Shown here: piece after piece, positions 1 through 25,100 of the stretch
Layout of the letters: each line of letters starts with the position of its first letter
Numbering within the stretch: position 1 is the stretch's first letter
Translations under genes and position numbers: made by a program
The notes under the pieces: model-generated
The model's database searches: none
Seen by the model: the letters and a program-made list of their open reading frames with translations, nothing else
Told to the model about the DNA's origin: nothing
NCBI GenBank assembly: GCA_945861645.1
Contig: CAMAVZ010000011.1
Span: forward strand, 1-54,939
Length of the DNA: 54,939 bases
Reading direction: 5' to 3'
Source of the DNA: Opitutus sp. GAS368
GTDB taxonomy: Bacteria > Verrucomicrobiota > Verrucomicrobiia > Opitutales > Opitutaceae

Positions 1-99
1 GGGAGAAGGGAGAGGGGATGGTTGCCGCCACCAAGAGCGAAGTGCAAAAATGCCGAGGATCAGGTGAATGGCGTGGAGGACCCAGTAGAGGTGGAGAAG

Positions 100-610
100 A
101 GGAGGGACTATTGACCACTGACTACCGACTACAGTCCCACTTTCACCTACCCCTTTCACTATTTCCTCCCCGCCGCTGGCGGGGTTCACGGGCCACTTCA
201 GCCAGGCGTAGAGCAGATAGGCCGCAAGGTAGGGGATCAGGAAGGCCCAGCCGGAGCGGAAGTAGGATATCAGTAGTAGCGAGTAGCGAGTAGTGGGTAG
301 TGGGTAGTCTCTGCCTGATCGATCGCTTGATGGCGCCGGAGAGGAGGCGACTGCCTGACTGTTCGGGTGATTCAACACGGTGGGCAGTGAATCGCAACAA
401 CGTTCAACGCTCAACTCTCAACTTTGCTCGCGCGAAGCGCTCCAGTTGAAGCAGGGAGTTGAAGTTTAGGTTGGAAGACCCGTGTGCGGTGCAGACCAAG
501 GCGGTTCACCACGAAACACACGTACCGAGCGAAGCGACATAGGACATGACACGAAAACGACCAAGCAGGGTTAACCACGGATTGCGCGGATTCGATCTGG
601 ATAAAGCCAA
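100..610. repeat. Intergenic repeat mosaic
   Basis: 138-270 matches 2538-2701/5371-5516; heptamers GTAGCGA/GTAGTGG 273-309; TTGAAG/TTTAGG hexamers 445-477; CCACGAA/CCACGGAT nonamer units 506-605. Confidence 0.75.
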
Positions 611-651
611 AGATTTCAGTCTGCGCCGGTACTACGGCTGACAGGACGGGA

Positions 652-846
652 TCAGGCTCCTTTGGGGACTGCAATCGAGAGATTGCGGCAAATAGAACGG
701 GCCAAATGGCGCTTGATTTCATTGTGCCTTGGCACGGCTTCTTTCCGACCGGTGGCGGGGTTCACCCAAATCGAGTGACTTCCTCCCTCTCGAAGCAACT
801 GGCAACCCTCCTGCTGCATATGGGCCAGCAGCTCACGCCGCTTCAT
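652..846 (-). CDS. hicA: HicA family toxin (mRNA interferase)
   Basis: 64 aa, MKRRELL...REGGSHSIWVNP...VPRHNEI; HicA GSH motif; overlaps hicB stop (ATGA). Confidence 0.9.
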   Translation of the reverse strand: MKRRELLAHMQQEGCQLLREGGSHSIWVNPATGRKEAVPRHNEIKRHLARSICRNLSIAVPKGA

Positions 847-1058
847 ATCGCAATCGTGATTTCTTCAGCGGCTGGATCGTCTTTGAGTTGTTGCCGCCGT
901 TCCGTTTCGAGCAGTAGGCGCACGGCCGCGCTTAAATCAGCAAGGCACTCCTCTTTGGTCTCACCCTGTCCGTTGGCCCCTGGGACTTCGAGACAGGTTG
1001 CCCAAAAACCACCTTCGTCCGCTTCGCCTGGATGAACTATGGCTGTAAGCTTTGTCAT
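843..1058 (-). CDS. hicB: HicB family antitoxin (short, no DNA-binding domain)
   Basis: MTKLTAIVHPGEADEGGFWATCLEVPGANGQGETKEECLADL, HicB-like fold motif; start reassigned to ATG 1058 below promoter. Confidence 0.88.
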   Translation of the reverse strand: MTKLTAIVHPGEADEGGFWATCLEVPGANGQGETKEECLADLSAAVRLLLETERRQQLKDDPAAEEITIAI

Positions 1059-1064
1059 GGGGTT

Positions 1065-1093
1065 AAAATAGGCCGAACCCGAGGGACCGTCAA
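1065..1093 (-). promoter_or_regulatory. Putative sigma70-like leaderless promoter of hicBA
   Basis: TTGACG-17 nt-TATTTT-6 nt-ATG. Confidence 0.6.
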
Positions 1094-1109
1094 GTCCGAC
1101 CAAGGCAGG

Positions 1110-1335
1110 ACCCAACAGAAGACGGTGACTAGCGGGCCCTACTTCGCTCGTTGAGCTATTGAGGACGTGATGAAGGGCACGCGGTATGCGCTCTGTTAGC
1201 ACGTGGGCAGTGAACGGCAGCAACGGGCAACGCTCAATCCTCAACTTTTTACGTGGTGGCGGCAGGTGGTTGTGCGTCAAAACAACGCACAAGAACCTAG
1301 CCTGCATCCATCACACTCAGACGGGTGATGGATGC
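1110..1335. repeat. Palindromic repeats (CCCTACTTCGCTCG...GAAGGGCAC family and others)
   Basis: Also at 5540-5612, 7737-7776, 8663-8702; hairpin GCATCCATCAC..GTGATGGATGC at about 1304-1335. Confidence 0.75.
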
Positions 1336-1488
1336 ACCCTGTCGGGCCGACTTGGTCGGGGCGAACCGCGACCTGGTCGCCTTTTCGCGCTCGAAGAGCG
1401 CGGAAAGCGGATGCGACAAATAGGAAATCTTGTGATGCATTCGGGCTAGCGAGGTGGGAGGCGAGCGGTGACCCTACTTCGCTCTCCG

Positions 1489-1926
1489 CTACAACTTCGG
1501 CCAGAGCTTCAGGCCTTCCCCGGCGGCGGCTTTCGCTTGCCGCTTGTCATAGGTGATGAACCACCCCGCGCCGCATTCGAGCGCCTGGCCGATATGCAGG
1601 GCGTCCAGCGAGCGCAACCCGCGGTGCTGGCGCAGCAAATGGATGGCCCGGGTAAAAACTCCCGGCCAGTCGGCCTCGGGCCGGGCCAGCACCCCTCCCT
1701 CCAAATCTTTTTCCAGGGCGACCGTGATGCGGGTGACATCCACGGAAGTCAAATCTCCCTCCTCGCGCCGGCGTTCGAGAGCGTGGGTCAGCTCCAGCTC
1801 GTGCAAAGAGGAATAGGGCAGGGGCGGAGCGTGGCGGCGGACAAAGGTGGACAGCTCCACCGTCTCCGGCTCCCGCACGTAGAGTTTCACCAGCGCACTC
1901 GTGTCGAGGTAAAGATCGAAGGCCAT
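1489..1926 (-). CDS. vapC: PIN-domain (VapC) toxin
   Basis: YLDTSALVKLY...E...LRSLDALHI...FITYDKRQ PIN acidic motifs; start at ATG 1926. Confidence 0.9.
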   Translation of the reverse strand: MAFDLYLDTSALVKLYVREPETVELSTFVRRHAPPLPYSSLHELELTHALERRREEGDLTSVDVTRITVALEKDLEGGVLARPEADWPGVFTRAIHLLRQHRGLRSLDALHIGQALECGAGWFITYDKRQAKAAAGEGLKLWPKL

Positions 1927-1928
1927 GG

Positions 1929-2153
1929 TCAATCCCGCTCGGCGAGGATGGTGGCGCTTAGCGAGCGGCCCTTGATGCGGGTCGTGCGGAGGGCGAAGTC
2001 GGGCCACTGGCACTTCGTAACGCTCGGCTGCATGGGCACCAGGCGGGCGATGGTGCGGCGGCGGCGGGTGACGAGCACCTCCTGCCCCTGGACCACGTGG
2101 CGCATGACGTCGCTCAGGTGATGTTGCATGTGGCGCAAAGTGACGGATTTCAT
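1929..2153 (-). CDS. Phd/YefM family antitoxin
   Basis: MKSVTLRHMQHHLSDVMRHVVQGQEVLVTRRRRTIARLVP, Phd pattern; directly upstream of PIN toxin. Confidence 0.88.
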   Translation of the reverse strand: MKSVTLRHMQHHLSDVMRHVVQGQEVLVTRRRRTIARLVPMQPSVTKCQWPDFALRTTRIKGRSLSATILAERD

Positions 2154-2190
2154 GTGCTTCAAAATGACGCACAAGCCGGGCGGGTGTCAA
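2154..2190 (-). promoter_or_regulatory. Putative promoter with overlapping operator-like palindrome
   Basis: TTGACA-18-CATTTT-7-ATG; imperfect palindrome GTGCGTCATTTTGAAGCAC over the -10. Confidence 0.55.
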
Positions 2191-2370
2191 GGCCCGGGGC
2201 GGAAGACGGAGCCCGGTGGCCGGTCGACCGGAAGGTATGCTCGCGTAGATGGCTTGTGCGTCAAAACAACGCACGTGAGAACTGCGCGGGGTGCGGAGAG
2301 GGGACGGGGAAGCGGAAGGAGAGGGGAAAACCTGAAACCTGAAACCTGCGGTGGACTGAAAGAAGTGGAA

Positions 2371-2425
2371 TCAGACGACCGTCTCGGCGATAAAGGCGTC
2401 AAGCACCGGCGCGTCCGCTCCGAGT
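2371..2425 (-). pseudogene. 3' remnant of a hicB paralogue
   Basis: Encodes LGADAPVLDAFIAETVV*, matching the C-terminus LGADAPALDAFIAETTV* of hicB at 5046-5267; DNA similarity extends past the stop codon. Confidence 0.7.
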
Positions 2426-2479
2426 ATCAGATGCAGTGCGTGTAGAAACCAGTAGACGTGGAGGAGGGGAGGAACTAAA

Positions 2480-2730
2480 GAAGTGAGAGTGAAAGTGAAA
2501 GGGGGAGACGACCAGGCGGTGGACGGTAGGGCTCCGGCACTTTCACTCATCCCTTTCACTAATCCCTCCCCGCCAGGGGCGGGGTTCACCGGCCACTTCA
2601 GCCAGGCGTGTACCGTTGTTGGCTGGCTACCAACCCGGTATTTGTCCGGGCCGTCGCCCGGCAAAGAGATGAGGAAGGCCCAGCCGCTCCGGAAGTAGGA
2701 TTGGACCAGCGCTCCAAGCCTACTTCCGGG
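2480..2730. repeat. About 190 bp composite hairpin element
   Basis: Near copies at 138-270, 4170-4670, 5371-5516. Confidence 0.8.
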
Positions 2731-2845
2731 GAGGCCGAAGGCCGGATCATTCTTCGCCAAGTCTACGGGCAAAATGGGCTGAAGGCTGGAGGCTGGAGGG
2801 GACACGAAGGGCGGTGGCTCGCACAGTGCGGGAATTGATCTCGGG

Positions 2846-3688
2846 CTAGACCTTATCTTTTGGTGGCATGAGGCGGCGAGCGGCACCGTGGTCGGTGAGG
2901 GTTCGCATCTGCCGGATGGCGATTTGGTTCAACTTCGCCAGACGTTCACCTTGGGGTAGTTCCATGCGAATGAACTCGGCGTTCATGCCTTCTATGTTGG
3001 CGAGTACGAGCAGTTGCTCCACGGTGGCGTATTCCCGCATATTGCCTTCCAATCCGCGGTTGGCGGCGCGCCACTGCCTTGCCGTGTGGCCGAAGAGAGC
3101 GACGTTGAGCACGTCTGCCTCGGTGGCGTAGGTGATGGCAGCTTGGGCCTGAGTCACCTGACTGGGAATGAGATGCTCTTTAACTGCGTCGGTATGAATA
3201 CGGTAGTTGAGCTTGGAAAGAGTGCGATTGAGGTTCCACGCCAGCGATAGTCGGCGATTCTCGTCATCCTTTAGCCGCTGGAACTCCTTGATGAGGTATA
3301 GCTTGAACTCGGGACTCAGCCACGAACCAAATTCAAAGGCGATGTCATGGTGGGCGTAGGTGCCACCATAGCGGCCAGCTGTCGCGATCAAGCCCTTTGC
3401 TTGGGTGGCCTCGATCCACTTCTTGGCCGAAAGATAAAAACTGTTACGCCCGGCTTCATTTCTAATTCCCTCGAATTCGATGGAATTAAAACCGGGGTTA
3501 TTGATCCGCTCCCATACCCCGAGGAAGAGCACGGTATCCTTATTCTTGAGCCACTGTTCGATCAGTGCGCTGCCGCCGTCAAAATGGCGCACCATGTCAG
3601 TGAGAGAAATGTAGTCGCGAGCTTCCCGGGTGAGAATAGCAATGGTCGCACCTTGAACCTTGATGGTCGCTTGTTTCGATTTACTCAT
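2846..3688 (-). CDS. KilA-N domain DNA-binding protein
   Basis: DYISLTDM...WERINNPGFN...GRYGGTYAHHDIAFEFGSWLSPEFKLYLIKEFQRLK; start at MSKSK. Confidence 0.88.
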   Translation of the reverse strand: MSKSKQATIKVQGATIAILTREARDYISLTDMVRHFDGGSALIEQWLKNKDTVLFLGVWERINNPGFNSIEFEGIRNEAGRNSFYLSAKKWIEATQAKGLIATAGRYGGTYAHHDIAFEFGSWLSPEFKLYLIKEFQRLKDDENRRLSLAWNLNRTLSKLNYRIHTDAVKEHLIPSQVTQAQAAITYATEADVLNVALFGHTARQWRAANRGLEGNMREYATVEQLLVLANIEGMNAEFIRMELPQGERLAKLNQIAIRQMRTLTDHGAARRLMPPKDKV

Positions 3689-3762
3689 GCCTTCACGATT
3701 TTTGAGCGCTCTCTCATCTGCCCGCTGGCAGTCTGGCGCTGAAAGCAAGGCGGCGGTGCGCC

Positions 3763-4104
3763 TCATCCATGCAGGAGTATTCCTTCGCGGCGGACGGCGC
3801 TGGCCAATGAGCACACGACCTGCTGCCCCTCCTGCCATTCCTTCCGGGTCAGCACCACAATATCCTTGGGGGCGGCAATATCGCCAACGTAACGGCGTGC
3901 TTCGACATTCCTGTGGTAACGCGATTGAGTAGATTCGGGTACAATCACCATAAGGTCCAAGTCACTGTCGACATTCGCCTCCCCCCGGGCATGCGAGCCG
4001 AACAAATAAATCGCATCGGGATGCAGCGCTTTTTCCAGGCGTTGAGCAATCAGGAGGGAAGCCTCAGGAATTGCCGGACGATCAGCGTGTGCAGGTGAAA
4101 TCAT
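3763..4104 (-). CDS. Minimal nucleotidyltransferase (MNT) antitoxin-like protein
   Basis: IYLFGSHARGEANVDSDLDLMVI = GSx10DxD MNT motif; AGGAG SD and TTGCAG-16-TAACGT upstream. Confidence 0.88.
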   Translation of the reverse strand: MISPAHADRPAIPEASLLIAQRLEKALHPDAIYLFGSHARGEANVDSDLDLMVIVPESTQSRYHRNVEARRYVGDIAAPKDIVVLTRKEWQEGQQVVCSLASAVRREGILLHG

Positions 4105-4169
4105 ACTCCTGCGGCTACGTTAGGCTGAGACTTGAGTGCTGCAAGAATGAAGAGAGTCCCCTGGCTTCT

Positions 4170-4700
4170 GCACTTTCACCGATAACTGATACTGCCTGCC
4201 ACCACTGGCGGGATTCACCGGCCATTTCTGCCAGGCTTTACCGTTGTTGGTTGGCTACCAACCCGGTACATGTCCGGGCACCCTGTTGCTTGCTGCTGCC
4301 AGCCCGGGGTCAGTCGCGCCGCCTGCGCGGCGGCTGAAGTCGCCCGGCATGGAGCAGATACGTGGCGAGGTAGCACCGTTGTTGGTTCGCTACCATCCCG
4401 GTATTTCGGCCGTCGCCCGGCAAAGGGTGAAGGAAGGCCCAGTCGCTCCGGCATAGAGCAGATAAGGCGGCGAGGTAGCACCGTTGTTGGTTTACTACCA
4501 ACCCGGTATGCCCTGTTGATGCCTGCTGGCATCACGGGGTTCGTCCACCGGCCTACGCCGGGGCGAATGTCCTCAGTTCTCGCTTTCGCGAAACAGAGGC
4601 AAAGGGATCAGGAAGGCCCAGCCGGATCGGAAGTAGGATTGGAGCAGCGCTCCAGATCTATTTCCGGTGGAGAAAGGAGAAAGGAAAAGGGAGAAGGGAC
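4170..4700. repeat. Hairpin mosaic
   Basis: Three (T/C)ACCGTTGTTGG..CCA(A/T)CCCGGTA hairpins plus TGCCCTGTTGATGCC.. and TGTCCTCAGTTCT.. modules shared with 12091-12245. Confidence 0.8.
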
Positions 4701-4793
4701 GGGCTAGGGGCATGACGTATCTTGCGTGAGATGCTGGTGAGGCGCCGGGGTGGTGCTGGGCGAAGCGGAAAGCAACGGCACGCCGCGGCGGTG

Positions 4794-5033
4794 TCAGGCA
4801 CGCTCGTAGGCCGACAGGAAATCCTCACGCGTAATACTCGACTGCCGCAGAATCAGCCGGAGCGTTGAGCCTTTGATTTTCGCGTGGTTGGGCAGGGTCA
4901 ACGGCGTGCGGGTGCCGTCGGGATTCTGACGGAGCATGGCGATGTGCTCGCGTTCGCGCACCAAGGTAAAGCCCAGCGCGACCAAGGTTCGCACCACACG
5001 GGCTTTGGGGACGTCGCGGGGAAATTTCGACAT
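4794..5033 (-). CDS. hicA: HicA family toxin
   Basis: ARVVRTLVALGFTLVREREHIAM...LTLPNHAKIKGSTLRLILRQ. Confidence 0.85.
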   Translation of the reverse strand: MSKFPRDVPKARVVRTLVALGFTLVREREHIAMLRQNPDGTRTPLTLPNHAKIKGSTLRLILRQSSITREDFLSAYERA

Positions 5034-5045
5034 CGACCGGTGGAA

Positions 5046-5267
5046 TCAAACGGTCGTCTCGGCGATAAAGGCGTCAAGCGCAGGCGCATCCGCCCCAAGC
5101 CCATCAGCGCCAAAGGTCTTCAGGTGAAACTTGATCGCGGATTTCACATCCTGAAGGGCCTGTTCAAAAGTATCCCCCTCTCCGACCACCACACCGTTCA
5201 CGCCCACCGGGTAGGCCACATAGCCATCGGCGTGCTTCTCCACAATGATCTTCAAGGTCTTGTTCAT
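5046..5267 (-). CDS. hicB: HicB family antitoxin (short)
   Basis: MNKTLKIIVEKHADGYVAYPVG...GEGDTFEQALQDVKSAIKFHL. Confidence 0.85.
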   Translation of the reverse strand: MNKTLKIIVEKHADGYVAYPVGVNGVVVGEGDTFEQALQDVKSAIKFHLKTFGADGLGADAPALDAFIAETTV

Positions 5268-5274
5268 GTCGGCG

Positions 5275-5302
5275 AAAGTAGCGCTTTTGACCGGAGTGAC
5301 AA
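5275..5302 (-). promoter_or_regulatory. Putative leaderless promoter of second hicBA
   Basis: TTGTCA-16-TACTTT-7-ATG. Confidence 0.55.
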
Positions 5303-5370
5303 GGGCGAAGGAGCGCAAGGAAGATGGAGCCCTTCGACCTTGCTCGGGGCGGGCAGGGAGGAGGCTGCGC

Positions 5371-5870
5371 CACTTTCACTCTTCCCCCGCCGTTCACGGC
5401 GTTGACGGGCCATTTCAGCCAGGCGTGTACCGTTGTTGGCTGGCTACCAACCCGGTATATGTCCGGGCCAGTCGCCCGGCAAAGGGATCAGGAAGGCCCA
5501 GCCGCTCCGGAAGTAAGCCACCAGTTGACGGTGACTAGCGGGCCCTACTTCGTTCGTTGAGCTTCCTCCGTCGCTCGTTGAGCTATGGAGGACATGATGA
5601 AGGGCGCGCGGTGGTCGGTCTGTTAGCACGGTAGACTATGGCTCGCGGAGCGAGCCAGTTTAAGTTGGCACTGTTGCCGCATGCTCGCGGCACAAGTATT
5701 TGTCCTGCGTTCTTGGGTGCTGCACACCCAAAACGCAGGCAAAAAGTTGAAGTTGAAGAGAAAGGCAGCCTGCGGAGGCGGATGGTGGGCGGTGGGCGGT
5801 GGCGGCGAAGCCGCACGGCAGCCGGTCTGACGGTGGGCGCCAGCAACCAATATCGCTCAACATTCAACGG
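5371..5870. repeat. Hairpin mosaic
   Basis: Composite element, nested CCCTACTTCG hairpin and GCGAGCCAGTTTAAG/TGTCCTGCGTTCTTGGG modules. Confidence 0.8.
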
Positions 5871-5878
5871 GCAGATTT

Positions 5879-6229
5879 TCAATGTTCAGCTTGGCCGAGG
5901 TTGTGCAGCATCTTCTCCACGGCGATAATTAGCGGGGCTAGGTCATTTTGGGCGGCATCCCAAAGAATGGCATGATCAGTCTCGTCGTAGCCATGGCTGA
6001 GCCGGTCGCGGGTCCCGGCGATTTGCTTCCAGGGTATTTCGGGATGCTCGGCCACAAGGCTAGTGGGTAGGCGTTTGACGGCTTCGCCAAGTATCTCCAT
6101 CTCGCGTTCAAATGCGGCCGCCAGCTTCCAATCTTGGGTAATGGCGGCCAATGAACTGGTGGCGATAAACTCCTGCAAGCGGCGGGCGTGAACCAAAATC
6201 TGGCGCAAGGTGACGCTTGGCGCGATCAC
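5879..6229 (-). CDS. HEPN/DUF86 (HepT-like) RNase toxin
   Basis: EILGEAVKRL...HPEIPWKQIAGTRDRLSHGY = RxxxxH-Y HEPN motif; GTGA overlap with MNT. Confidence 0.9.
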   Translation of the reverse strand: MIAPSVTLRQILVHARRLQEFIATSSLAAITQDWKLAAAFEREMEILGEAVKRLPTSLVAEHPEIPWKQIAGTRDRLSHGYDETDHAILWDAAQNDLAPLIIAVEKMLHNLGQAEH

Positions 6230-6537
6230 GCCTGCTCATAAATCGGCAGCGCCTCGCGCATGACGGTGTTGCGATAATCCCGGTTCAGCATGGCGGGGGT
6301 GTTCAAGTCTACGCTACGACCGATGATTCCGGCCAGTTCGTCGCCGTAGCCGAAGAAACGAAAGCCGGTTCGGGCCTTGGGGTCCATTTCCACCAGCACG
6401 TCGACATCGCTGTGCTGGAGATCGAAATCGTCGCGCAAAACGGAGCCAAACAGGCTGAGTTTGCGGATGCCGCGGGCATGACAAAACTCCGCAATAGCCT
6501 TGCGGTCCAAGTCGACGGGGAGTGTAGCAACCTTCAT
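6226..6537 (-). CDS. MNT (MntA-like) antitoxin
   Basis: LSLFGSVLRDDF...SDVDVLVE...GRSVDL. Confidence 0.9.
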   Translation of the reverse strand: MKVATLPVDLDRKAIAEFCHARGIRKLSLFGSVLRDDFDLQHSDVDVLVEMDPKARTGFRFFGYGDELAGIIGRSVDLNTPAMLNRDYRNTVMREALPIYEQA

Positions 6538-6580
6538 GCTCTCAGGCTGGCGATTCCAGCGCGGGAAGCAAGCCGTGGTT

Positions 6581-7031
6581 GGCGGCGCGCGGAGCGCGCC
6601 AGTTTAAGCGGGAAGTTTAAGTTGAAGATCGGGGCGATGGCGGAAAAAGATGAAATCGGAAAAGAAGAAAATTGGGAAACTAAGGCGCGTGGCGCGCCAA
6701 TTGAAGGCGGAGGTTTAAGTTTAAGATTCGGAGCGATGGCGAAAAAAGATGAAACAGGGGAAAGAAGAAAATTGGGAAACTAAGGCGCGGAGCGCGCCAG
6801 TGCCCTGTTGATTTTTGCTAACATCCCAGGGTTCGGCCGACGTTCTCGTGCGTGAGTACGCATGAAACGTAGGCGAAGAAGTTGGCGCTGTTGCCGCATG
6901 CTCGCGGCACAAGTGTGCCCTGTTGATGCCTGCTGGCGTCACGGGGTCCGTCAGCCGGCCTGCGCCGGGCGGATGTCCTGCGTTCTTGGGTGCTGCGCAC
7001 CCAAAACGTGGGCATAAAGTTTAAGTTGAAG
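6581..7031. repeat. Hairpin/periodic repeat mosaic
   Basis: Two GAAAAAGATGAAA..GGGAAACTAAGGCGCG units plus a hairpin string nearly identical to 8508-8657. Confidence 0.85.
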
Positions 7032-7102
7032 TAAAAGGCACCCAGCTATGGCGCGGCAAGCGGTGCATCAGGCGGCCTGCAAGAGATGGACGGTGGACGG
7101 GT

Positions 7103-7372
7103 TCAGTCAATATATACGGTTGAGCGGTGTCCGACGGCGACGACTACGACAATGAGAACGGACTTTTCGAGACGGCAGAGCAGTCGCCAGTCCCGGACGC
7201 GGTAGCGCCAGAGGCCATGCTTGGAACTTCGCAGCGGTTTGCCAAATAGTTCTGGGTCGGAGCAACCCTCAATGCGCTTTTCCAGCCAAGCTGTAATCTC
7301 GGCGCGAGCGGCAGGACCAAGCTGGTCGAGCTGCCGGTTCGCGTCTTCGAGGATTTTATACGACCAGGCCAC
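7103..7372 (-). CDS. relE: RelE/ParE family toxin
   Basis: GKPLRSSKHGLWRYRVRDWRLLC...VVAVGHRSTVY; GTG start at 7372 overlapping antitoxin end. Confidence 0.88.
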   Translation of the reverse strand: MAWSYKILEDANRQLDQLGPAARAEITAWLEKRIEGCSDPELFGKPLRSSKHGLWRYRVRDWRLLCRLEKSVLIVVVVAVGHRSTVYID

Positions 7373-7658
7373 CGAGAAATTCTTTGCGGGTGAGTAGCCG
7401 AGATTTACCGGCCAGATGCTTTTCCCAAGCAGCATCCCCGAGACGGGCATCGCGTTCGTCCTCGACGGATTCAAGGAGCGCGGCGGCGAGTCGCTCTAAG
7501 CGGGCCAGCTTGGCATCGTCCGAGGCCGGGGGCCCGGCCAAGGCTGCGCGCTTGATGTAGGCGGAGGGGCTCAGCCCGCGCTTGCGGGCGAGGGTGGCGA
7601 TTCGGCGCTTTTCTGCCGGACTGAGGCGGATGGAGGTGGGAATTGTCGTGGCGGCCAT
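7356..7658 (-). CDS. RHH-like antitoxin (RelB/CopG-type)
   Basis: TSIRLSPAEKRRIATLARKRGLSPSAYIKRA RHH-like N-terminus, acidic C-terminus; upstream of relE; palindrome ACTACA-CT-TGTAGT at 7661-7674. Confidence 0.75.
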   Translation of the reverse strand: MAATTIPTSIRLSPAEKRRIATLARKRGLSPSAYIKRAALAGPPASDDAKLARLERLAAALLESVEDERDARLGDAAWEKHLAGKSRLLTRKEFLGGLVV

Positions 7659-7853
7659 GCACTACAAGTGTAGTCGATCGGAGGGGGAGTCAAGGCCGGT
7701 CGGATACCGGTGGACGGTCGGATACCGGTGGACGGTGGGCCCTACTTCGCTCGATGAGCTATGAAGGGCACGCGGTGGGCGGTAGGGGCACGGAGAACGG
7801 TAGACGGTGGGATCGGGCGGGACTTCACCGAGGCAAGTGGAGGATACTGAGGG

Positions 7854-8195
7854 TCAAAGCGGCAGGCGATAAGTGGCGATGATCTTGCGGCCGATCTGCC
7901 GGCGGCGTTCAGGGGTGACCCGACCAATGCGAGTGGTGATCTTGCGCCGGTCAACGGAGTAGAGATGGCCACAACTGAAAAGAGTGGGGTGGTCGAGTCC
8001 GTCGGCACCGTTGAGCGTGACGTGATACGGACGCGGCTGGATAGCCGGCCGGCGGGTGCTGCCGTACAGAACATTTATCTGAGGCTTGCTGGAGTCGGCG
8101 CAAAACTCGTCGCAGGTGATAACGACGGCAGGGTGCTCGTCTTCGTCTTGGGGATTTATGCGGACCCGGACAATGTCCCACTGGGTGATGTTCAT
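7854..8195 (-). CDS. mazF: PemK/MazF family toxin
   Basis: QWDIVRVRINP...HPAVVI...SVDRRKITTRIGRV, MazF/PemK pattern; ATGA overlap with AbrB gene. Confidence 0.75.
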   Translation of the reverse strand: MNITQWDIVRVRINPQDEDEHPAVVITCDEFCADSSKPQINVLYGSTRRPAIQPRPYHVTLNGADGLDHPTLFSCGHLYSVDRRKITTRIGRVTPERRRQIGRKIIATYRLPL

Positions 8196-8440
8196 AGGTC
8201 CTCTGGGCCGAGGTCCGGGCCGGCCAGCTTGTCGAGTTCATAGTCCCATTTCGACAGTTTCAGCGAGCCGGGCGGAGGATAGTCGATGGGCTCAAAGGCC
8301 GGCAAGGCATCGGACGGACGGAGGAACAGGCCGCCATCTCGTTCCTCGATTTCTAGCTTGGAGCGGGCCTTGAGCCGGAGGCGGCGGCGCATGGGCGCCG
8401 GCAGGACGATCTGGCCTTTGCTGGAGAGGGTGAGTTGCAT
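8192..8440 (-). CDS. AbrB/MazE/SpoVT family antitoxin
   Basis: LSSKGQIVLPAPMRRRLRLKARSKLEIEERDGGLFLRP. Confidence 0.9.
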   Translation of the reverse strand: MQLTLSSKGQIVLPAPMRRRLRLKARSKLEIEERDGGLFLRPSDALPAFEPIDYPPPGSLKLSKWDYELDKLAGPDLGPEDL

Positions 8441-8480
8441 GGCTTACTTTTTCCTACGCAGGTTTATTTGTCAAGAAACG

Positions 8481-8705
8481 ATGGCGCGCGGAGCGCGCCA
8501 GTTTAAGTTGGGCGCTGTTGCCGCGTGCTCGCGGCACATGTGTGCCCTGTTGATGCCTGCTGGCATCACGGGGTCCGTCAGCCGGCCTGCGCCGGGCGGA
8601 TGTCCGACGTTCTTGGGTGCTGCGCACCCAAAACGTAGGCAAAAGTTTAAGTTGAAGATCGGGGGCCCTACTTCGCTCGATGAGCTATGAAGGGCACGCG
8701 GTGGG
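8481..8705. repeat. Hairpin mosaic
   Basis: Matches 6882-7031 and 37468-37585. Confidence 0.85.
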
Positions 8706-8752
8706 CGGGGCATGCTGGCGGGACATAGCGCCATAGTCATTCGTCGTAGCGT

Positions 8753-9160
8753 TTAGGAAAACGGATTGAGGGTGTTGACGCCGGAACGTTGGAAGTCGGC
8801 GGTATTGCGCGTGACGACGGTGAGTTTGTGTTGGAGGGCGGTGGCGGCAATCAGTCCATCTGTGACCGGGAGTGGTTGATTGAGACACAACCGTCCCCAG
8901 CCATCGGAAATAACAGAAGTGACCGGCAAAATACGCTCCGTGTAATGAGCTTCCAATCCGAGCAGCCAGCGTTCAAGCGCGCCGGCCGCTTTGGCATCTT
9001 TGGGCCGATGGAGCTCAATGCCCCGGCGGATTTCACCCAGGCTGAGCACACTTAGGAATGCCTCGTCTGGCTGGATGCTGGACATCCAGTCGGCCACGCC
9101 CTGGTTGCAGTGCGGCTTCCGCAGCTCGGAAATAACGCAGGTGTCGATGAGGTAAGCCAT
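8753..9160 (-). CDS. vapC: PIN-domain VapC/FitB toxin
   Basis: YLIDTCVISELRK...LGEIRRG...DGLIAATA...VVTRNTADF...NPF. Confidence 0.93.
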   Translation of the reverse strand: MAYLIDTCVISELRKPHCNQGVADWMSSIQPDEAFLSVLSLGEIRRGIELHRPKDAKAAGALERWLLGLEAHYTERILPVTSVISDGWGRLCLNQPLPVTDGLIAATALQHKLTVVTRNTADFQRSGVNTLNPFS

Positions 9161-9396
9161 CAGATCTCAATCGTGCGCGGCAGATCCGTTGACCGGGGAA
9201 ACGGGATGGCTTTCCCTGGTGGGATACAACGAAGGTAGGCGAGGAAGTCGCGTTGGGGACCAAGCTTGTCCCCAGCCAGGACGGAGCGCAACAGACGGCG
9301 GTGAGCTTCTTCGACCGAGATGCCTTGGGCGGCGGCGCGACTGCGGAGCTTTTTTACCACAAAGGATTCGATGTCACGGACGAGGAGTTGAGGCAT
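9160..9396 (-). CDS. FitA-like RHH antitoxin
   Basis: MPQLLVRDIESFVVKKLRSRAAAQGISVEEAHRRLL. Confidence 0.88.
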   Translation of the reverse strand: MPQLLVRDIESFVVKKLRSRAAAQGISVEEAHRRLLRSVLAGDKLGPQRDFLAYLRCIPPGKAIPFPRSTDLPRTIEI

Positions 9397-9402
9397 GGCA
9401 AG

Positions 9403-9431
9403 AGGATGCTATCAGTGATAGCAATAGTCAA
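9403..9431 (-). promoter_or_regulatory. Putative promoter with perfect operator-like palindrome
   Basis: TTGACT-17-CATCCT-6-ATG; TGCTATCA-N-TGATAGCA at 9407-9423. Confidence 0.7.
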
Positions 9432-9444
9432 GGGGGAGGTCTTT

Positions 9445-9726
9445 TTAGTTTAAGTTGGAAGATCGGGGCGATGGCGGAAAAAGATGAAATCGGGAAAGTA
9501 AGGCGCGTGGCGCGCCAGTTTAAGTTGGAAGTTTAAGTTTAAGTGACGGATGCAGACGGAACCGAGATTTGCTAACTTAAACTTCAACTTTACACTTCAA
9601 CTGGAGCGCAGCGCGACTAGCGCCAGTTTAAGTTGGCACTGTTGCCGCATGCTCGCGGCACAAGTATTTGTCCTGCGTTCTTGTGTGCTGCACACCCAAA
9701 ACGCAGGCAAAAAGTTTAAGTTGAAG
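9445..9726. repeat. Hexamer-periodic inverted repeat plus hairpin string
   Basis: GTTTAAG arms versus CTTAAAC/CTTCAAC arms; 9622-9726 matches 5655-5758. Confidence 0.85.
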
Positions 9727-9746
9727 CAGGATTTCCTCGAGGGTCC

Positions 9747-10559
9747 TTACAATACGTCGGCGAAGGCTGGCTTCATGCGCTTGAAGGCGAGATGGCCGAG
9801 CGCGCACGTTATCAGACCAGTGGCATACAAATAACCGAGGTGGCTATAGTTGATCGGTTGCAGCCAGAGCGCGGCCGCACGGGCTTCTTCAATGGCTAGC
9901 AGCACGGGATTGAAGCGCATGTATAGCCAGGCGGCGTCGGGAATCATCCGCGCTGAATAAAATACCGCGCTCGAGAACATCAGGGCCAGGGTGAGAAATT
10001 GCATGATCTGACTGACGTCTCGGAAAAATACTCCCAGCGCTGAAACCAACCACGCAAGCCCCAGACAAAGTAAAATCAGCGGAAAAATAATGACGGGCAA
10101 CCACAGCAAACTCCAACTCATCGCATGGCCGCAGCATAACAAACTGAGCAGCACTAAACCTAAGCTGATTAATAAATGAATCAAAGCCGCCCCCACGTTG
10201 GCCGCTGGCAAAATCTCTAACGGGAAAACCACCTTCTTCACGAAATTTGGATTCCCCACAATCAAGCTGGGTGCGAGCGCGAGCGTTTCCGCTAAGAGAT
10301 GAAAAATAGTCAGACCAATAAAAATACCGAGAGCGTAATCCACCCGCGTCTCACCAGGGATCACCCCAAAACTGCCGCCGAAGATATACCCGAAAACTAA
10401 AACATACAGCGCGAGCATCAACAGCGGACTCAGGAACGACCAAATTAACCCTAAATGGCTGCCTTTGTGCCGTAGTTCTACGTTGCGCAGGGTGAACTGC
10501 CAGAGGAGTTCACGGTGCGTCCAGAGATCAGCTGCAAAGGGAAGGAGGCGGCGAAGCAT
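9747..10559 (-). CDS. wzm: ABC-2 polysaccharide export permease (Wzm)
   Basis: RHKGSHLGLIWSFLSPLLML...GNPNFVKKVVFPLEILP...FRDVSQ...FADVL. Confidence 0.9.
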   Translation of the reverse strand: MLRRLLPFAADLWTHRELLWQFTLRNVELRHKGSHLGLIWSFLSPLLMLALYVLVFGYIFGGSFGVIPGETRVDYALGIFIGLTIFHLLAETLALAPSLIVGNPNFVKKVVFPLEILPAANVGAALIHLLISLGLVLLSLLCCGHAMSWSLLWLPVIIFPLILLCLGLAWLVSALGVFFRDVSQIMQFLTLALMFSSAVFYSARMIPDAAWLYMRFNPVLLAIEEARAAALWLQPINYSHLGYLYATGLITCALGHLAFKRMKPAFADVL

Positions 10560-10562
10560 GGA

Positions 10563-11152
10563 TTTTTAAGGTGTAAGGGATAAGGTGTAGGTTTTTAAGC
10601 CTGAAGACGAGTAGAACATTGGAGCGATCAGGGCGGTGGCGGAAAAGATGAAATAGGAGAAAGTAGAAAATCGGGAAACTAAGATCCGGATCGACCAAGG
10701 CATTTTTAACCACGAAGGGCGCAAAATGACGCGAAGGGGGGGGCGGAAAAGATGAAACTTTGGAAAGTGGAAATCAGGAAACTCGGAATCGGCCTTTTGG
10801 ATTTAATCCAGATCGTATCCGTGCTGTGTTCCCACATCGCCCGGTGGGCACCCGCTGCGGTCACCCCTGCTCCCGCTGCTGCGGTAGTCGGGGCCACGCC
10901 TGGGGCGTGACCATCTCCGCGCTACAGCGCTCCGTCCGTGGTTAAATTGGTTTGGGATCGTACCAAGACAGTGGAGGGAAAAATGAAATAGTAGAAAGTA
11001 GAAAATTGGGAAACTAAGATCCGGATCGACCAAGGCATTTTTAACCACGAGGGGCGCAAAATGACGCGAAGGGGGGCGGAAAAGATGAAATCGTGAAAGT
11101 AGAAAACTAAGGCGCGTGGCGCGCCAGTTGAAGTTGGACGTTTAAGTTGTAG
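10563..11152. repeat. About 130 bp direct repeats flanking a 154 bp element also present at 50706-50859
   Basis: 10641-10770 resembles 10977-11105; 10802-10955 resembles 50706-50859. Confidence 0.85.
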
Positions 11153-11176
11153 CGAAAATGCACCCAGCGTTAGCAC

Positions 11177-11359
11177 TCACAGTTTCCAATGGCTTCCGCC
11201 TTCGATGGGTTTGCCTTTGGCACCTGGCGCGAAGCAACTGGCAAATTTGGCAAAGGCCAGGTATTCGCTGACCGGTCGGCGAGGCCATTGCCGTGGCGGT
11301 GGGGTCACCGGCTTGGTCCGACGCAACTGCGCACGTTCAATCTCGGTCAGGGAGGCCAT
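11177..11359 (-). CDS. Small hypothetical protein coupled to nucleotidyltransferase
   Basis: 60 aa ORF overlapping the NTase stop by 23 nt, same strand. Confidence 0.5.
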   Translation of the reverse strand: MASLTEIERAQLRRTKPVTPPPRQWPRRPVSEYLAFAKFASCFAPGAKGKPIEGGSHWKL

Positions 11360-11900
11360 GGTATTTTTTTAGCTCGTCCAGCCTGTCTTCCAAGCGAAAT
11401 ATCTTCAGATAGTCGATGATCAGGGCCCAATCGATGGCGGTGTCTTGCTCCCGCGCTGCTTCCAGGATCATCCGGATGTCCGCCCAATCGCGCGTCGCCC
11501 GCGCTGGATTGTTGACCACGGCTTGCACCTTCAGTCCGATAATGTCTTCCAAATGCACCACGCGGATCGACAGCCCATCAAGCACGGGTAGCGCTTCGGC
11601 CCGCTGGAGCATTCCCAGGGTTGGGCCCCGGAAGGCGTGAAGGATGTCGATGCGGCCCCAGTCGCCGGCCGTCGATTGATACTGGGAGACATCGGGCGAA
11701 TGGAAGATGCGTTCATAACCGAAGCCCCGGATAATTTCATCCGCTTTGCCCAGATCTTCCAGCATGAGGATAAAATCGAGATCCATGGTCGCCCGCTGCA
11801 CTCCGCGCAACCCCATGGCAAAACCGCCGATCAGCGCATAGTTGACTCCGGCCGCCTCCAGCGCGCCTACGACCTTGCGAATGACGAGTTCAAAGTCCAT
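11337..11900 (-). CDS. Nucleotidyltransferase-fold protein (DUF6036/AbiEii-like)
   Basis: YALIGGFAMGLRGVQRATMDLDFI...RIDIL...EDIIGLK...DWADI; start at MDFELV. Confidence 0.8.
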   Translation of the reverse strand: MDFELVIRKVVGALEAAGVNYALIGGFAMGLRGVQRATMDLDFILMLEDLGKADEIIRGFGYERIFHSPDVSQYQSTAGDWGRIDILHAFRGPTLGMLQRAEALPVLDGLSIRVVHLEDIIGLKVQAVVNNPARATRDWADIRMILEAAREQDTAIDWALIIDYLKIFRLEDRLDELKKYHGLPDRD

Positions 11901-12090
11901 GCGGGGAAAAGAGGGCGGCGTGTTGGGCGGTTGCTTCGTCAGCTGCGCCACCCGCCGGCGGATGTTTTTGCGGGGTCAGCATGGCGGCAGTGAACGGCGG
12001 CTACGCTCAGCATTCAACTTTTAACGCTCAAGTGAAAGATCGGCCAAAGCGGAAGAGCCGGTGGCCCCACCGTCGCCAAACCGCGGCAAG

Positions 12091-12250
12091 TACCGTTGTT
12101 TGCCTCTGCAAACCCGGTATGCCCTGTTGATGCCTACTGGCATCCCGGGGTTCGTCCACCGGCCTGCGCCGGTGCGAATGTCCTCAATTCTCGCTTTCGC
12201 GAAACAGAGGCACGTCCCGTTGTGGTGTGCTCGCCACCCGGGATTTGTCC
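12091..12250. repeat. Hairpin string
   Basis: Near copy of 4479-4601. Confidence 0.8.
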
Positions 12251-12292
12251 ACGGTTCTGGCGCGTCATCCGTCGCCAAACCGAGGTAAAAGA

Positions 12293-12589
12293 TCAGGCGA
12301 CTTGCAAGGGCTGGACGGTGGCCTTGATTTTTGGACCAAGCGCGTGAATCGCCTCGCGCAGGTCATAGGCGAGTTGGACCCTCAGCCAATAGCCAGGCGT
12401 CTGGCCAAAATAGGTGGAAAGATGGAGATCGGTTTCCGCGGTGATCCCGCGCTTCTCGTTGACGATTTCGTTGGCGCGCTGCTGGGGGAGCTTCGCGTCT
12501 TTCGCCAGTCGGTAGGGCGTGAGGCCCATGGGACCAAGAAACTCCTCTCGGAGTAGTTCGCCGGGATGGACATTGCGGTGCTTTTTCAT
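12293..12589 (-). CDS. higA: HigA family HTH antitoxin (orphan)
   Basis: VHPGELLREEFLGPMGLTPYRLAK...EIVNEKRGITAET...YW..Q..YDL. Confidence 0.93.
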   Translation of the reverse strand: MKKHRNVHPGELLREEFLGPMGLTPYRLAKDAKLPQQRANEIVNEKRGITAETDLHLSTYFGQTPGYWLRVQLAYDLREAIHALGPKIKATVQPLQVA

Positions 12590-12592
12590 GGT

Positions 12593-12607
12593 TTAGTGAT
12601 AGTCGGT
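12593..12607 (-). pseudogene. Terminal remnant (TDYH*) of higB toxin
   Basis: ACC GAC TAT CAC TAA lies 3 nt before the higA ATG; DYH* is the usual HigB C-terminus; upstream sequence is repeat DNA. Confidence 0.6.
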
Positions 12608-12938
12608 GGCGCGCGGCGTAGCCGCACGCCAGTTTAAGTTGGAAGTTTAAGTTGGAAGTTACGGATGCAGACGGAACCGGGATCTGCTGACTTAAACTTC
12701 AACTTTACACTTAAACTATCGGACGCGAAAGCGTAGGGCGCTGGCACGCTAGTTTAAGGATAAAGTTTAAGTTGAAGTGAAATTCAGCCGGTCGGACGAG
12801 GCTCGCGGAGCGCGCCAGTTTAAGCGCAAGGCGCTAGTTTAAGTTGAGAGTTTAAGATTGGGGGCGTACGGAACGGGGATCTGCTGACTTAAACTTCAAC
12901 TCCAAATTTCAACTAGCGCGGTCAGCCGCGCTGGGCGC
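12607..12938. repeat. Two hexamer-periodic inverted-repeat elements
   Basis: Same core ACGGAAC.GG.ATCTGCTGACTTAAACTTCAACT as 9500-9619, 13511-13630, 37571-37660. Confidence 0.85.
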
Positions 12939-12939
12939 T

Positions 12940-13227
12940 TCAGGATTTTAGCCGTTTGATAAATTGAGCCTCGAAGAGTTCGTACACCAGCTGGCGCTCC
13001 TCAATGAAGAGCACTTCGATAGCCCCATCGGCTGCGTAGGCGAAAAGGATGCGATGGCGGCCCACCCGGAGTCGATAGTAGCCCGAAAGATTGGCTTCGA
13101 GGGCACAGATGTCGCCTCGCTCCTCGCGCAGCTCGGTGAGGGCTTGCTTGATTGCACGCCGAGGCTCCGGCGCGAGCCGGCGGACATAGTCGATCACTAA
13201 AGTAGAGGGACGAACGACACGGCTCAC
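12940..13227 (-). CDS. relE: RelE family toxin
   Basis: DICALEANLSGYYRLRVGRHRILF...IEERQLVYE; GTGA overlap with Phd gene. Confidence 0.82.
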   Translation of the reverse strand: MSRVVRPSTLVIDYVRRLAPEPRRAIKQALTELREERGDICALEANLSGYYRLRVGRHRILFAYAADGAIEVLFIEERQLVYELFEAQFIKRLKS

Positions 13228-13472
13228 CCGGAGAGATCCTCCAGCCGGCCGAACTTAGTTCGGCCGGCCTGATGCTCAGCAATGGCGTGCATCGCCGCAG
13301 CGTTCCCCATGATTTCGAGGGTCTCGGCAATAGCACTCATGCGCGCATGGCCGATCACGCAGGCGACGGATTTGTCATGACGGGTGACGGTAACGACCTT
13401 CCCCTTCTCGGCCGCCTTCACGAGGGCGGGGAAGGCATCTTGGCCTTCGGAAATGCTGACGGTAGATTTCAT
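13224..13472 (-). CDS. Phd/YefM family antitoxin
   Basis: TVSISEGQDAFPALVKAAEKGKVVTVTRHDKSVA...ETLEIMGN. Confidence 0.88.
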   Translation of the reverse strand: MKSTVSISEGQDAFPALVKAAEKGKVVTVTRHDKSVACVIGHARMSAIAETLEIMGNAAAMHAIAEHQAGRTKFGRLEDLSG

Positions 13473-13510
13473 GAATTAACCTGTAGATCGTGGTGTACGA
13501 AAGTCAAGTA

Positions 13511-13717
13511 TGGCGCGCGGCGCAGCCGCGCGGAGCACGCCAGTTTAAGGGTAAAGTTTAAGTTGAAGATCGGGCGTACGGAACGGGAATCTGCTGACTT
13601 AAACTTCAACTTTACACTTAAACTATCAGCAGCTGGGGCCACCGCTCCGAATCCCCAATCTTAAACTTAAACTCCCAACTCCAACTAACCCATGGCGCGC
13701 TTCGCGCGCCATGGGTT
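13511..13717. repeat. Hexamer-periodic element plus perfect hairpin
   Basis: Element as above; AACCCATGGCGCGC-TTC-GCGCGCCATGGGTT at 13687-13717. Confidence 0.8.
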
Positions 13718-13771
13718 TTCCTGTTGCCAAATTGGGGGCTTTGCGGCGCCCTCTAGCTTATTAAATTATTC

Positions 13772-15145
13772 ATGAAATTCCTGAATCTCTGCGCGCTGCT
13801 CCCAGTCCTGGCAGTCAATTTATGGGCGGCGGCGCCCACAGCTCCTGAGCTTAGTTTGCCGGAAGCGATCTTCCCTGATCTCGAGGTGATTCTCAAAAAA
13901 GCCGCCCAGCAATCCCCCCAAATGCTGAGCCAGGCCCTCACCTTGGAGATTGCGGAAGAGGGTCGCATTTACGCCCGTTCCTCACTGCTCCCAAGCATTG
14001 GAGCGAGTGTCAGTCTTAGCCGAGCACAAGATAAAACTACTTACGTCTACAACCCGCGGAACTCTTCCTCGACGGAGTACTACTCCACGACCAATCCTTA
14101 CAGTTATTCTATTTCACAGCCAGTTTTCCATTGGGGCGCCTTGCGCAATTCAGCGCGCATCGGGGCGATCTACGCCAGCATTGCTCATGGTCAGTATCGC
14201 AACGGCTATCGGCAACTCGCGCAGGGCCTGCGGGCCAGTTATCAGGCACTGATCGTGCAGAAAATAGCGGTCAAACGGGCCACGCTATACCTCGAAATCG
14301 TCCAGAAACAATTGGCTATTCATGAGGCGGGTTTTGCCAAGCAGGAGATCGCCGAAGCCACGGTAGTCGCTTCGCGTCTCGCAGTGGAAGCGGCACAAAT
14401 CGACTATGAGCGGGTGCAATTTAATTTTGAGTCAGCTAAAAATTCCTTGGCCCGTTTATCGGGCTGTCCGGCTTTAGCTAATGAGGCTATTCCTGACGAG
14501 GTGCCGTCACTCACCTACAACGAGGCCGCTTTCAGTCAGTTGCTCGCGGGCTTCCTTGCGCAAAAAGATCCCCCGACGATTGATGCGGTTACCGCGCGAA
14601 AAAATCTGGAAATTGCCAACTTGAATTATGCGATCACGCGGACGCGGTTGCGCCCCAAATTTGGGGCCTCGGCGGGGGTATCGCAGAGTGTCCAACACAA
14701 CCTTTACGGCTCAATCGATACCTACCAACTGAATTCAAGATCGATCAGCATCTCCGCCTCGTGGTCACTCTTCGATGGCTTTGCTTCCGGGGCCGCCCAG
14801 CGCAGCGCCTTGGCCACCCGGCGCCAGCAGGAGGCTGCCTACAAGGAACTGACCGACCAGCTGGCCCAGTCGGCGCAGACCCAAGTGAAGCTGATCAATT
14901 TTTACGCCCGTACCATGTCGATGTCCGATCGCGCACTCGTTGCCAGCGGGGAAAATCTCGAACATCAGCAAGCCGAATTTGCTTTGGGCAATATTGCCGA
15001 GGCCGCCCTGAGTTGGGCCCAGATGGGCTTGTACGACGCGCAAATGAGCACCTACAGTGTCCGCAGTGAATATCTCCGCCAGACGGGAGAATTTCTCGGT
15101 CTCATCGTGGAAGATCCGGTCCTTAATAATTTAACCGATAAATAA
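13772..15145 (+). CDS. TolC family outer membrane efflux protein
   Basis: Signal peptide; LLPSIGAS..., SWSLFDGF OEP-like motifs; first gene of exporter operon. Confidence 0.8.
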   Translation: MKFLNLCALLPVLAVNLWAAAPTAPELSLPEAIFPDLEVILKKAAQQSPQMLSQALTLEIAEEGRIYARSSLLPSIGASVSLSRAQDKTTYVYNPRNSSSTEYYSTTNPYSYSISQPVFHWGALRNSARIGAIYASIAHGQYRNGYRQLAQGLRASYQALIVQKIAVKRATLYLEIVQKQLAIHEAGFAKQEIAEATVVASRLAVEAAQIDYERVQFNFESAKNSLARLSGCPALANEAIPDEVPSLTYNEAAFSQLLAGFLAQKDPPTIDAVTARKNLEIANLNYAITRTRLRPKFGASAGVSQSVQHNLYGSIDTYQLNSRSISISASWSLFDGFASGAAQRSALATRRQQEAAYKELTDQLAQSAQTQVKLINFYARTMSMSDRALVASGENLEHQQAEFALGNIAEAALSWAQMGLYDAQMSTYSVRSEYLRQTGEFLGLIVEDPVLNNLTDK

Positions 15146-19732: not shown

Positions 19733-19787
19733 GCCGCCCTGTAGCCAGCAATAAAAAGCCTCTAACTTTCCGACGCCACCGAACCTG

Positions 19788-25099: not shown

Positions 25100-25100
25100 G

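Follow-up and report, generated by a model that had tools for sequence, protein, structure and literature searches.

What are the small bulged hairpins that crowd one end of a contig from Opitutus sp. GAS368, and by what means did they come to be there? The DNA in question is contig CAMAVZ010000011.1 of assembly GCA_945861645.1, analysed over positions 1 to 54,939 of its forward strand, and this whole stretch of 54,939 nucleotides (nt) is referred to below as the window. An original prediction had singled out eight hairpins in it that differ in sequence and share two bulges, and had proposed them as structure-recognised recombination or cleavage sites reminiscent of integron attC sites or of the ends of REP and IS200 elements. 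All eight are present at the coordinates given, and in each the fold leaves one T and one C of the 5' arm unpaired. A structural scan adds a ninth, overlooked at the time, at 12246-12287, as well as five further two-bulge hairpins on contigs C23 and C38; within the window the two-bulge descriptor matches nine times on the plus strand, never on the minus strand and never in 200 shuffles. The hairpins had been taken for stand-alone units, and in this respect the picture changes. Each is the 3' half, hairpin B, of a gene-free two-hairpin DNA element of about 66 bases that starts some 31 nt further 5' with a hairpin A abutting B, and this element, here called AB, is the subject of what follows.

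The element is compactly built, 55-75 nt in length. Hairpin A has the form CACCG-TT-G-NNNN-loop-NNNN-C-C-CGGTG, with a TT/C internal loop, and hairpin B the form NN-YG[T]CC-variable stem-loop-GGYR-NN (bulged base in brackets), its stem running two covarying base pairs below the ends first given. In relatives B is always preceded by A with zero linker. Covariation, one of the checks that the original prediction had suggested, is strong: when 92 distinct copies are aligned, 95.6% of cells are paired, as against 33-46% in slid controls and with none of 500 shuffles as high, and changes on both sides are seen in 17 of 27 pairs, six invariant pairs being fixed by the search pattern and hence uninformative. 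The covariance model built from this alignment (R1) was then used for the AB scans. The fold is strong (z about -5 to -6), and the base pairs at its feet vary freely. Among 144 distinct sites in relatives (227 copies collapsed by flank identity), the lengths of 82 are divisible by three, 60 of these being 66 nt.

The copies had been described as different sequences with a shared architecture. They do vary in the loop, in the inner stem and in the middle stem of 3 bp, but not in the frame around these parts, YG[T]CC..GTT[C]T..AAAC..GGYR, which is conserved in sequence. Likewise, the two-bulge rule holds for the eight hairpins listed, whereas in the family at large the first bulge is general and the second is a subfamily trait. 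The second bulge is present in 223 of 283 copies matching a broader pattern, most of that set having been fetched with a pattern that required it, and it is missing from forms of 54-57 nt and 71 nt. The bulged T was demanded by the search patterns, and it is also present in the forms found by the model, degenerate copies excepted; the 54-57-nt and 71-nt forms so found retain both A and the bulged T. Rfam yields no match at E <= 1 in window positions 1-14000, and no description of AB was found in the papers searched, most subscription papers lying outside that coverage. AB is thus a real and apparently undescribed family, and probably a mini-element resembling REPs and Rickettsia palindromic elements (RPEs) that moves as single-stranded DNA (ssDNA).

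With the covariance model, 18 AB units are found in the window, all on the plus strand, 17 of them in the first 12.3 kb and one at 37496, and six strong copies lie on other contigs. Simple elements with a two-bulge B occupy 5669-5743 (including the predicted hairpin 5701-5741; 57.7 bits, fold z -6.4), 6803-6877 (hairpin 6832-6877; 56.8 bits), 9637-9711 (hairpin 9669-9709; 55.4 bits) and, alone outside the array of genes described below, 37496-37570 (hairpin 37528-37568; 53.8 bits). Four times a unit is found nested inside another, precisely at the A|B joint of the outer one. In the composite at 4479-4603, supported by model and fold, an outer A (4479-4510) and two-bulge B (4568-4603, an already predicted hairpin) enclose an AB at 4511-4567, and the model places the other three at 6886-7016 (nested AB 6918-6973, outer B hairpin 6974-7014), 8513-8643 (nested 8545-8600, outer 8601-8641) and 12091-12214 (nested 12122-12178, outer 12179-12212). 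Directly behind the last of these is a two-bulge element absent from the original prediction, at 12215-12289 (68.9 bits). The copy at 37496 gives the un-nested form of 8513-8643, in comparison with which the nested 57-nt piece replaces one T; a contig joint links 8543 to 8601 with one T between. Short-B forms lie at 2611-2665 (43 bits with R1, no second bulge) and 5428-5483, an A with truncated B (4239-4280) is followed directly by a second AB (4281-4337) within 4239-4337, and a degenerate short AB is at 4374-4424 (22.6 bits).

Joining the flanks of these copies recovers empty sites on the same strand. The spacer repeat around 4479-4603 exists unfilled at 219-246 (joint 232/233), and the repeat that surrounds the copies at 5669, 9637 and 37496 exists unfilled at 9515-9542 (joint 9528|9529) and again from 12629, so that clear empty partners are available for 4 of the 17 window units and nests tested. 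A comparable search at the relatives' 144 sites gave seven matches, mostly in heptamer arrays, the orthologues of most sites being outside the sample. Within genes, the filled allele of ctaG exceeds 15 of its 19 counterparts by exactly 22 codons, the remaining four showing a one-codon difference or other inserts, one of which is AB with heptamers, and further open-frame cases occur in helicase, DsbD, topoisomerase, DegT and QueA genes. Target duplication of 2-6 nt is at shuffled expectation across the 144 sites, and a general duplication of 7 nt was rejected when its excess (9 versus 0.8) was traced to heptamer arrays. The sole rules in the flanks of these sites are a G-rich left side, avoidance of C at -1 (3%) and purines at +2 and +3. 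AB is therefore inserted flush at both feet and without target duplication, between genes, in frame within genes and inside its own A|B joint.

Some of these places are of interest in themselves. The ctaG loop (L492, L496, L498, L501, L507) holds four kinds of insert in five genomes, namely AB alone, AB with heptamers, heptamers alone and two other palindromes; several repeat families therefore use the same tolerant spot. At one orthologous site (L011 in genome G005, L079, L450, L477) AB appears nested, un-nested or as a TG joint variant, the TG being a possible precursor or excision scar. Where a neighbouring gene is convergent, the B foot is flush (0 nt) with its stop codon in 6 of 45 cases (L016, L069, L074, L079, L113, L142), compared with two at 1-10 nt.

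Do these insertions mark the borders of mobile gene cassettes? In the window they lie within an array of toxin-antitoxin and nucleotidyltransferase modules on the minus strand (652-13472, by Pfam and NCBIfam), arranged around an ABC-2 permease gene and comprising two HicA, two PIN, two Phd, KilA-N, two NTP_transf_2, HepT, ParE, RHH, MazF/MazE, FitA, an AbiEii-like protein and HigA. A reading in line with the original prediction, that the hairpins are attC-like sites through which an integron-type tyrosine recombinase shuffles toxin-antitoxin cassettes, is encouraged by the extrahelical bases on one arm, by the single, direct orientation of AB along a same-strand array and by the presence of AB beside such modules in relatives too. 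An attC site is defined by outer R''/R' boxes, RYYYAAC..GTTRRRY. These are found at none of the 144 sites on either strand; the GTT..AAC pair of AB is internal and in the opposite order, no crossover triplet is conserved, the foot base pairs, where crossover would take place, vary freely, and the junctions are flush at the feet. AB is present in only 7 of the 12 module spacers, within mosaics of other repeats, and empty versions of the same spacer repeats exist, so it is not a site delimiting cassettes. Further, most copies in relatives are at housekeeping genes, and no integron integrase was found in the source genome (84% complete), whose three tyrosine recombinases (XerD-like, XerC-like and phage-type) are all far below the cut-off: two score 135 and 106 bits with TIGR02249 against a cut-off of 265, and the third has no match. 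An integron-type explanation is accordingly quite unlikely, and already weakened by the filled and empty pairs. What does survive of the broader proposal is that structure is conserved over sequence, that the functional molecule is probably DNA rather than RNA and that the hairpin feet are recombination junctions. In the window, the best explanation, which we hold by a modest preference, is that AB is a passenger piling up in the spacers of a repeat-rich toxin-antitoxin island, not a cassette boundary.

The preference for DNA derives from orientation. Copies are distributed about evenly across the four classes of flanking-gene orientation (22, 17, 16 and 15; 74 sites classified), and those in frame within genes run in both directions. 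In G062, a single-contig complete genome, 26 of the 33 copies listed, from 36 found, are on the G-rich strand (p 0.0013; 13 versus 2 by clusters, with 2 tied). Of the stretches sampled for skew in this genome, 6 of the 9 up to 1.7 Mb have negative values, and 9 of the 10 between 1.8 and 3.8 Mb have positive ones. Around AB itself, 68 of 89 sites have flanks with positive skew. The lagging-strand template is the G-rich strand, and such a bias, combined with random orientation to neighbouring genes, points to DNA-level, fork-linked movement. A strand bias in the same direction has been described for IS200 elements and ascribed to ssDNA use (PMC3971601; here and below, citations refer to parts of the papers). 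An ssDNA intermediate for AB is thus probable. The converse view, that AB works as RNA, whether terminator-like, mRNA-stabilising or as an RNA-mediated mobile unit, could appeal to the strength of the fold, to the many copies near gene ends, including the six flush with a convergent stop codon, and to an RNA sequencing run covering parts of the array, although that run, seen as contigs only, could stem from DNA. Given the absence of Rfam matches in the stretch searched, the even orientation to neighbouring genes, the in-frame copies in both directions and the lack of an RVT_1 reverse transcriptase match in the source genome, an RNA function appears very unlikely.

In a minority of copies the insertion involves more than AB itself. 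In 13 of 112 copies, distributed over three genes, the stretch that follows immediately on the B foot is found a second time 71-75 nt before A, and AB therefore lies inside a second copy of its own target; the sites are the 3' end of an ABC-F-type ATPase gene, the 3' end of the homoserine dehydrogenase gene (hom) and the 5' end of an icd-like gene, so named from a reading of its translation. In a larger set 12 of 283 rows have such a duplication, at 71-77 nt. The duplication keeps the gene intact. Of 30 ABC-F loci, 6 hold a unit of 139-150 nt, in one case twice in tandem, that consists solely of gene end, spacer and AB and encodes no endonuclease, while the other 24 loci and the source genome are empty; at the icd site 4 of 30 loci are filled and the others empty, and in three of the four filled alleles A is directly preceded by 8 nt copied from the left flank of the target. 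The upstream copy preserves the protein but is AT-shifted at third positions (28/105, versus 13/105 downstream and 57/360 in empty alleles; p 0.014 and 0.015, from seven filled loci related by descent), and the downstream copies are nearly undecayed and host-like right from the B foot. Each gene-end site may have had one origin, with later spread via ordinary recombination.

Restoration of a gene end upon integration is familiar from phage attP sites. WHO homing elements at yeast FBA1 provide a second parallel, in that insertion replaces the gene end and leaves the old end downstream (PMC7282813), and AB also stacks in tandem, at L066; the AB unit differs in its size of about 140 nt, in having no endonuclease or integrase gene and in using at least three unrelated target genes, one of them at the 5' end. 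A related layout occurs at L529 (contig C12 of the source genome, about 52050-52450) and L531: behind a tRNA gene come a small GIY-YIG gene, a short perfect hairpin and then the tRNA 3' end once more, as in the AB gene-end units but with a nuclease as cargo; the L529 hairpin is also in frame in the ctaG gene of L507.

The ease with which a gene-end unit, once formed, could spread by ordinary recombination raises the question of whether AB needs an enzyme of its own at all. It could in principle travel passively with the mosaic spacer repeats through homologous recombination and slippage, as the many copies within heptamer arrays and other repeats (22 rows among those listed) and the presence of other repeats in the same ctaG loop of other genomes might suggest. 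However, clean 66-nt insertions without flanking repeats exist, the downstream gene-end copies are nearly undecayed and host-like from the B foot, and the bulged two-hairpin fold is compensatorily conserved across diverged copies, which implies recognition by something. Purely passive spread is consequently the least likely of the explanations considered here.

Which known system, then, does AB most resemble? REP and BIME sequences with their TnpA-REP partner (RAYT, of the HUH Y1 type) are, like AB, short dispersed bulged hairpins in mosaic clusters with some in-frame copies and probably act as ssDNA (PMC8266576; PMC3733652). E. coli REPs need a GTAG tag and a stem bulge (PMC8266576; PMC3733652). 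In AB, GTAG is found at -4 to -1 in 1 of 144 sites and CTAC after B in 2 of 144, so the REP likeness suggested originally fails at its defining signature, as does that to attC; moreover, a REP is one hairpin or an inverted dimer, whereas AB comprises two different abutting hairpins with flush feet, and no tnpA-REP gene lies beside it. REPs of the CGTC type have an unpaired CGTC tag, an 8-9-bp stem, a 4-5-nt loop and a CCA tail (PMC3733652), in contrast to AB, in whose YGTC the YG is paired and covarying (11 compensatory cells, columns 35-76) and which has no CCA tail. The ends of IS200/IS605 elements such as IS608 and ISDra2, and of their non-autonomous derivatives, share with AB the absence of target duplication, bulged hairpins and a strand bias in the direction of the fork (PMC3971601), but AB has no fixed target tetranucleotide, its hairpins reach the very ends of the element, and several carriers have no Y1 gene. 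RPEs and the intragenic REPs of Opitutus terrae are likewise in-frame palindromic inserts in conserved proteins (PMC3733652); they have another sequence and fold, and AB, unlike them, nests in itself and carries gene-end copies. Finally, NTS/dRS3 repeats, with the SRM motif recognised by Ssn GIY-YIG nucleases, are oriented hairpin repeats around variable surface-related loci with a DNA-level function (PMC11893778), although the degenerate SRM motif is in none of the 92 AB copies on either strand. In its workings AB resembles a REP or an IS200-derived miniature element, and yet it is not a member of either: GTAG tag and fixed target tetramer are wanting, as are the attC boxes and the SRM motif.

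Taken together, the evidence leads us to lean, without strong conviction, towards AB as a non-autonomous mobile DNA mini-element that is moved as ssDNA by a trans-acting, structure-specific enzyme. AB would fold when its strand is single-stranded on the lagging-strand template; the enzyme would read the internal loop of A and the bulged T of B, cut at the feet, and join the cut strand into another single-stranded target by peel-and-paste chemistry. Such an enzyme would most likely be of the HUH Y1 type or, failing that, another small ssDNA nuclease working with host ligation; that a dedicated enzyme exists, with Y1-type chemistry as its likeliest class, is put forward tentatively. An alternative upstream cut or the capture of a small circle might yield the unit of about 140 nt, in which 71-77 nt of gene end are joined to AB and which could then re-insert at the B foot in orthologous genes and so replace the gene end. 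A more radical version, which we regard as unlikely, would have an undescribed ssDNA recombinase act on AB by recognising the two abutting hairpins: with its flanks paired to the target, AB would form a four-way-junction-like fold and be joined exactly at the feet, and with the 71-77-nt arm it would become a programmable, gene-preserving homing cassette whose target gene is picked by the arm and not by the enzyme.

Several observations weigh against movement by a dedicated ssDNA enzyme. To begin with, the co-occurrence with a tyrosine recombinase or HUH gene that the original prediction had asked about is not seen, and no partner enzyme was found. The source genome (84% complete) has no Y1_Tnp, RVT_1 or IS110 match; a search for the IS91 family also gave none, but as control genomes gave none either it is uninformative. 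PF01797 is absent from the carriers G000 (the source genome), G004 (99% complete), G016, G022 and G023, and at 30 loci drawn from 152 Y1 matches in 41 genomes the AB model has no match at E < 0.5. Pfam and PHROGs scans of AB neighbours revealed no recurrent nuclease among sets of 102, 90, 57, 74, 71 and 14 candidate open reading frames, which came through crude filters, include many shadow frames and represent part of all neighbours. Nor was excision observed: for the contig joints in four sequencing runs, paralogous repeats are the best explanation. Y1 systems have a fixed guide tetranucleotide and fixed cut sites (PMC8266576), whereas in AB even the most frequent left-flank 4-mer occurs in only 11 of the 144 sites. 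At L409, a glnS-like gene by translation reading, the gene-end duplication measures 245 nt, and junctions shift by 1-4 nt at the ABC-F and hom sites, so that 71-77 nt is not a strict rule. As for the strand evidence, the replichore switch of G062, a single genome, was set by eye on the basis of 20 sampled stretches, with the places of the copies already known; the flank skew peaks at sites whose two neighbouring genes both run the other way (20 of 22) and is thus possibly in part a coding effect; and wobble counts (41 G.T versus 55 A.C) do not single out the folded strand.

Certain candidates proved to be something else. An IS200-family TnpA of 151 amino acids at L606:16045-16500 in G062 lies between two AB copies, the nearer of which is in frame within another gene, and has its own short inverted ends; it is not bounded by AB. 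A phage protein labelled a transposase by PHROGs is of a metallopeptidase family by Pfam. A 10-letter loose end at window position 6885 fits an empty allele in two runs and is too short to count.

Could a nuclease that merely cuts be sufficient? On this account AB would be the recognition site of an Ssn-type or other repeat-partnered small ssDNA nuclease that cuts incoming or replicating DNA nearby, with host repair and gene conversion spreading AB and making the gene-end duplications in place of a true transposase. The hairpin bound by SsnA is oriented, and the enzyme cleaves ssDNA immediately upstream of it (PMC11893778); GIY-YIG genes partnered by other repeats do exist in the genus, some of them Ssn-like and flanked by repeats of their own; and the 8-nt left-flank copy before A in three of four filled icd alleles is what a cut just upstream of A would leave. 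Nevertheless, the SRM motif is missing from AB, and at 33 GIY-YIG loci (of 299 matches in the genus) there is no AB and no AB-flanked ssn-like gene, the best model match (E 0.016) not being AB-like. Cutting alone also leaves unexplained the flush de novo insertion at 144 unrelated, duplication-free sites. We consider this account improbable, and retain as preferred the mini-element moved as ssDNA by an enzyme acting in trans.

How widely is AB distributed? Its insertions are numerous across a single group of aquatic and soil bacteria and the phages of that group. The B pattern matches in 19 of 41 genomes, all of the window's genus, with none in a reversed control, and the covariance model detects AB in 61 of the 65 congeneric genomes, at 1-41 copies apiece with 80 candidates scored in each. 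Among 151 genomes sampled from the phylum 3 are positive, namely the source genome, one congener and one weak match in the same family, and in a sample of the family 11 of 151 are positive, nine of them strongly, across four genera; AB was not found in any other sampled family. In a GTDB-wide scan the 80 titled matches listed are all Opitutales or unplaced Verrucomicrobiota records, mostly named Lacunisphaera or Oleiharenicola, and include a cultured Oleiharenicola lentus strain. One weak match outside the carrier genera (L464, G099) lies in a coding region, is not AB-like and is probably due to chance. In relatives most copies adjoin or interrupt housekeeping genes, and some are next to toxin-antitoxin-type modules in polysaccharide loci. 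Phage-like contigs also carry AB, with up to seven copies on one strand in a 28.5-kb contig and with terminase, portal, capsid or Mu-like genes near the copies; a viral scan with B alone returned mostly chance matches (one true among 67 loci tested). Uncultured phage and prophage contigs (L648-L651, L667; L654, L657, L660, L670; L661, L663, L671; L210, L656) hold 1-7 copies, mostly on a single strand per contig, at a density far above that of host chromosomes.

The surroundings of AB in the window deserve brief mention. Other families of spacer repeats form mosaics at 429-13664, 37419-37787, 50440-51009 and 53654-53983 and elsewhere in the genome; they include D1/D7/D14 TTTAAG-type tandems in inverted pairs, the purine-rich 57-mer D2, D8, D9, the 154-mer D10, D15 and heptamer tandems. 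The ABC-2 type permease gene (9747-10559) is lower in GC and sits in the middle of the toxin-antitoxin island, which suggests that the island has grown inside a polysaccharide export locus. Farther along, at 19073-29419, genes for Alternative complex III are followed by cbb3-type oxidase-like genes in an ordinary-looking region.

Beyond the GTAG/RAYT and Ssn systems, little is settled about how short palindromic repeats such as REPs and RPEs enter new sites, including sites well inside proteins. AB offers the field a family whose ends are exact and whose covarying copies number in the hundreds, with alleles both filled and empty, a bias in replication strand and carriers in culture, and the mover can therefore be sought by pull-down with a 66-nt oligonucleotide. 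If the proposed mode of movement is true, the enzyme behind it, inserting ssDNA without a scar either under loose target rules or with a short homology arm as its guide, would also be of interest as a tool.

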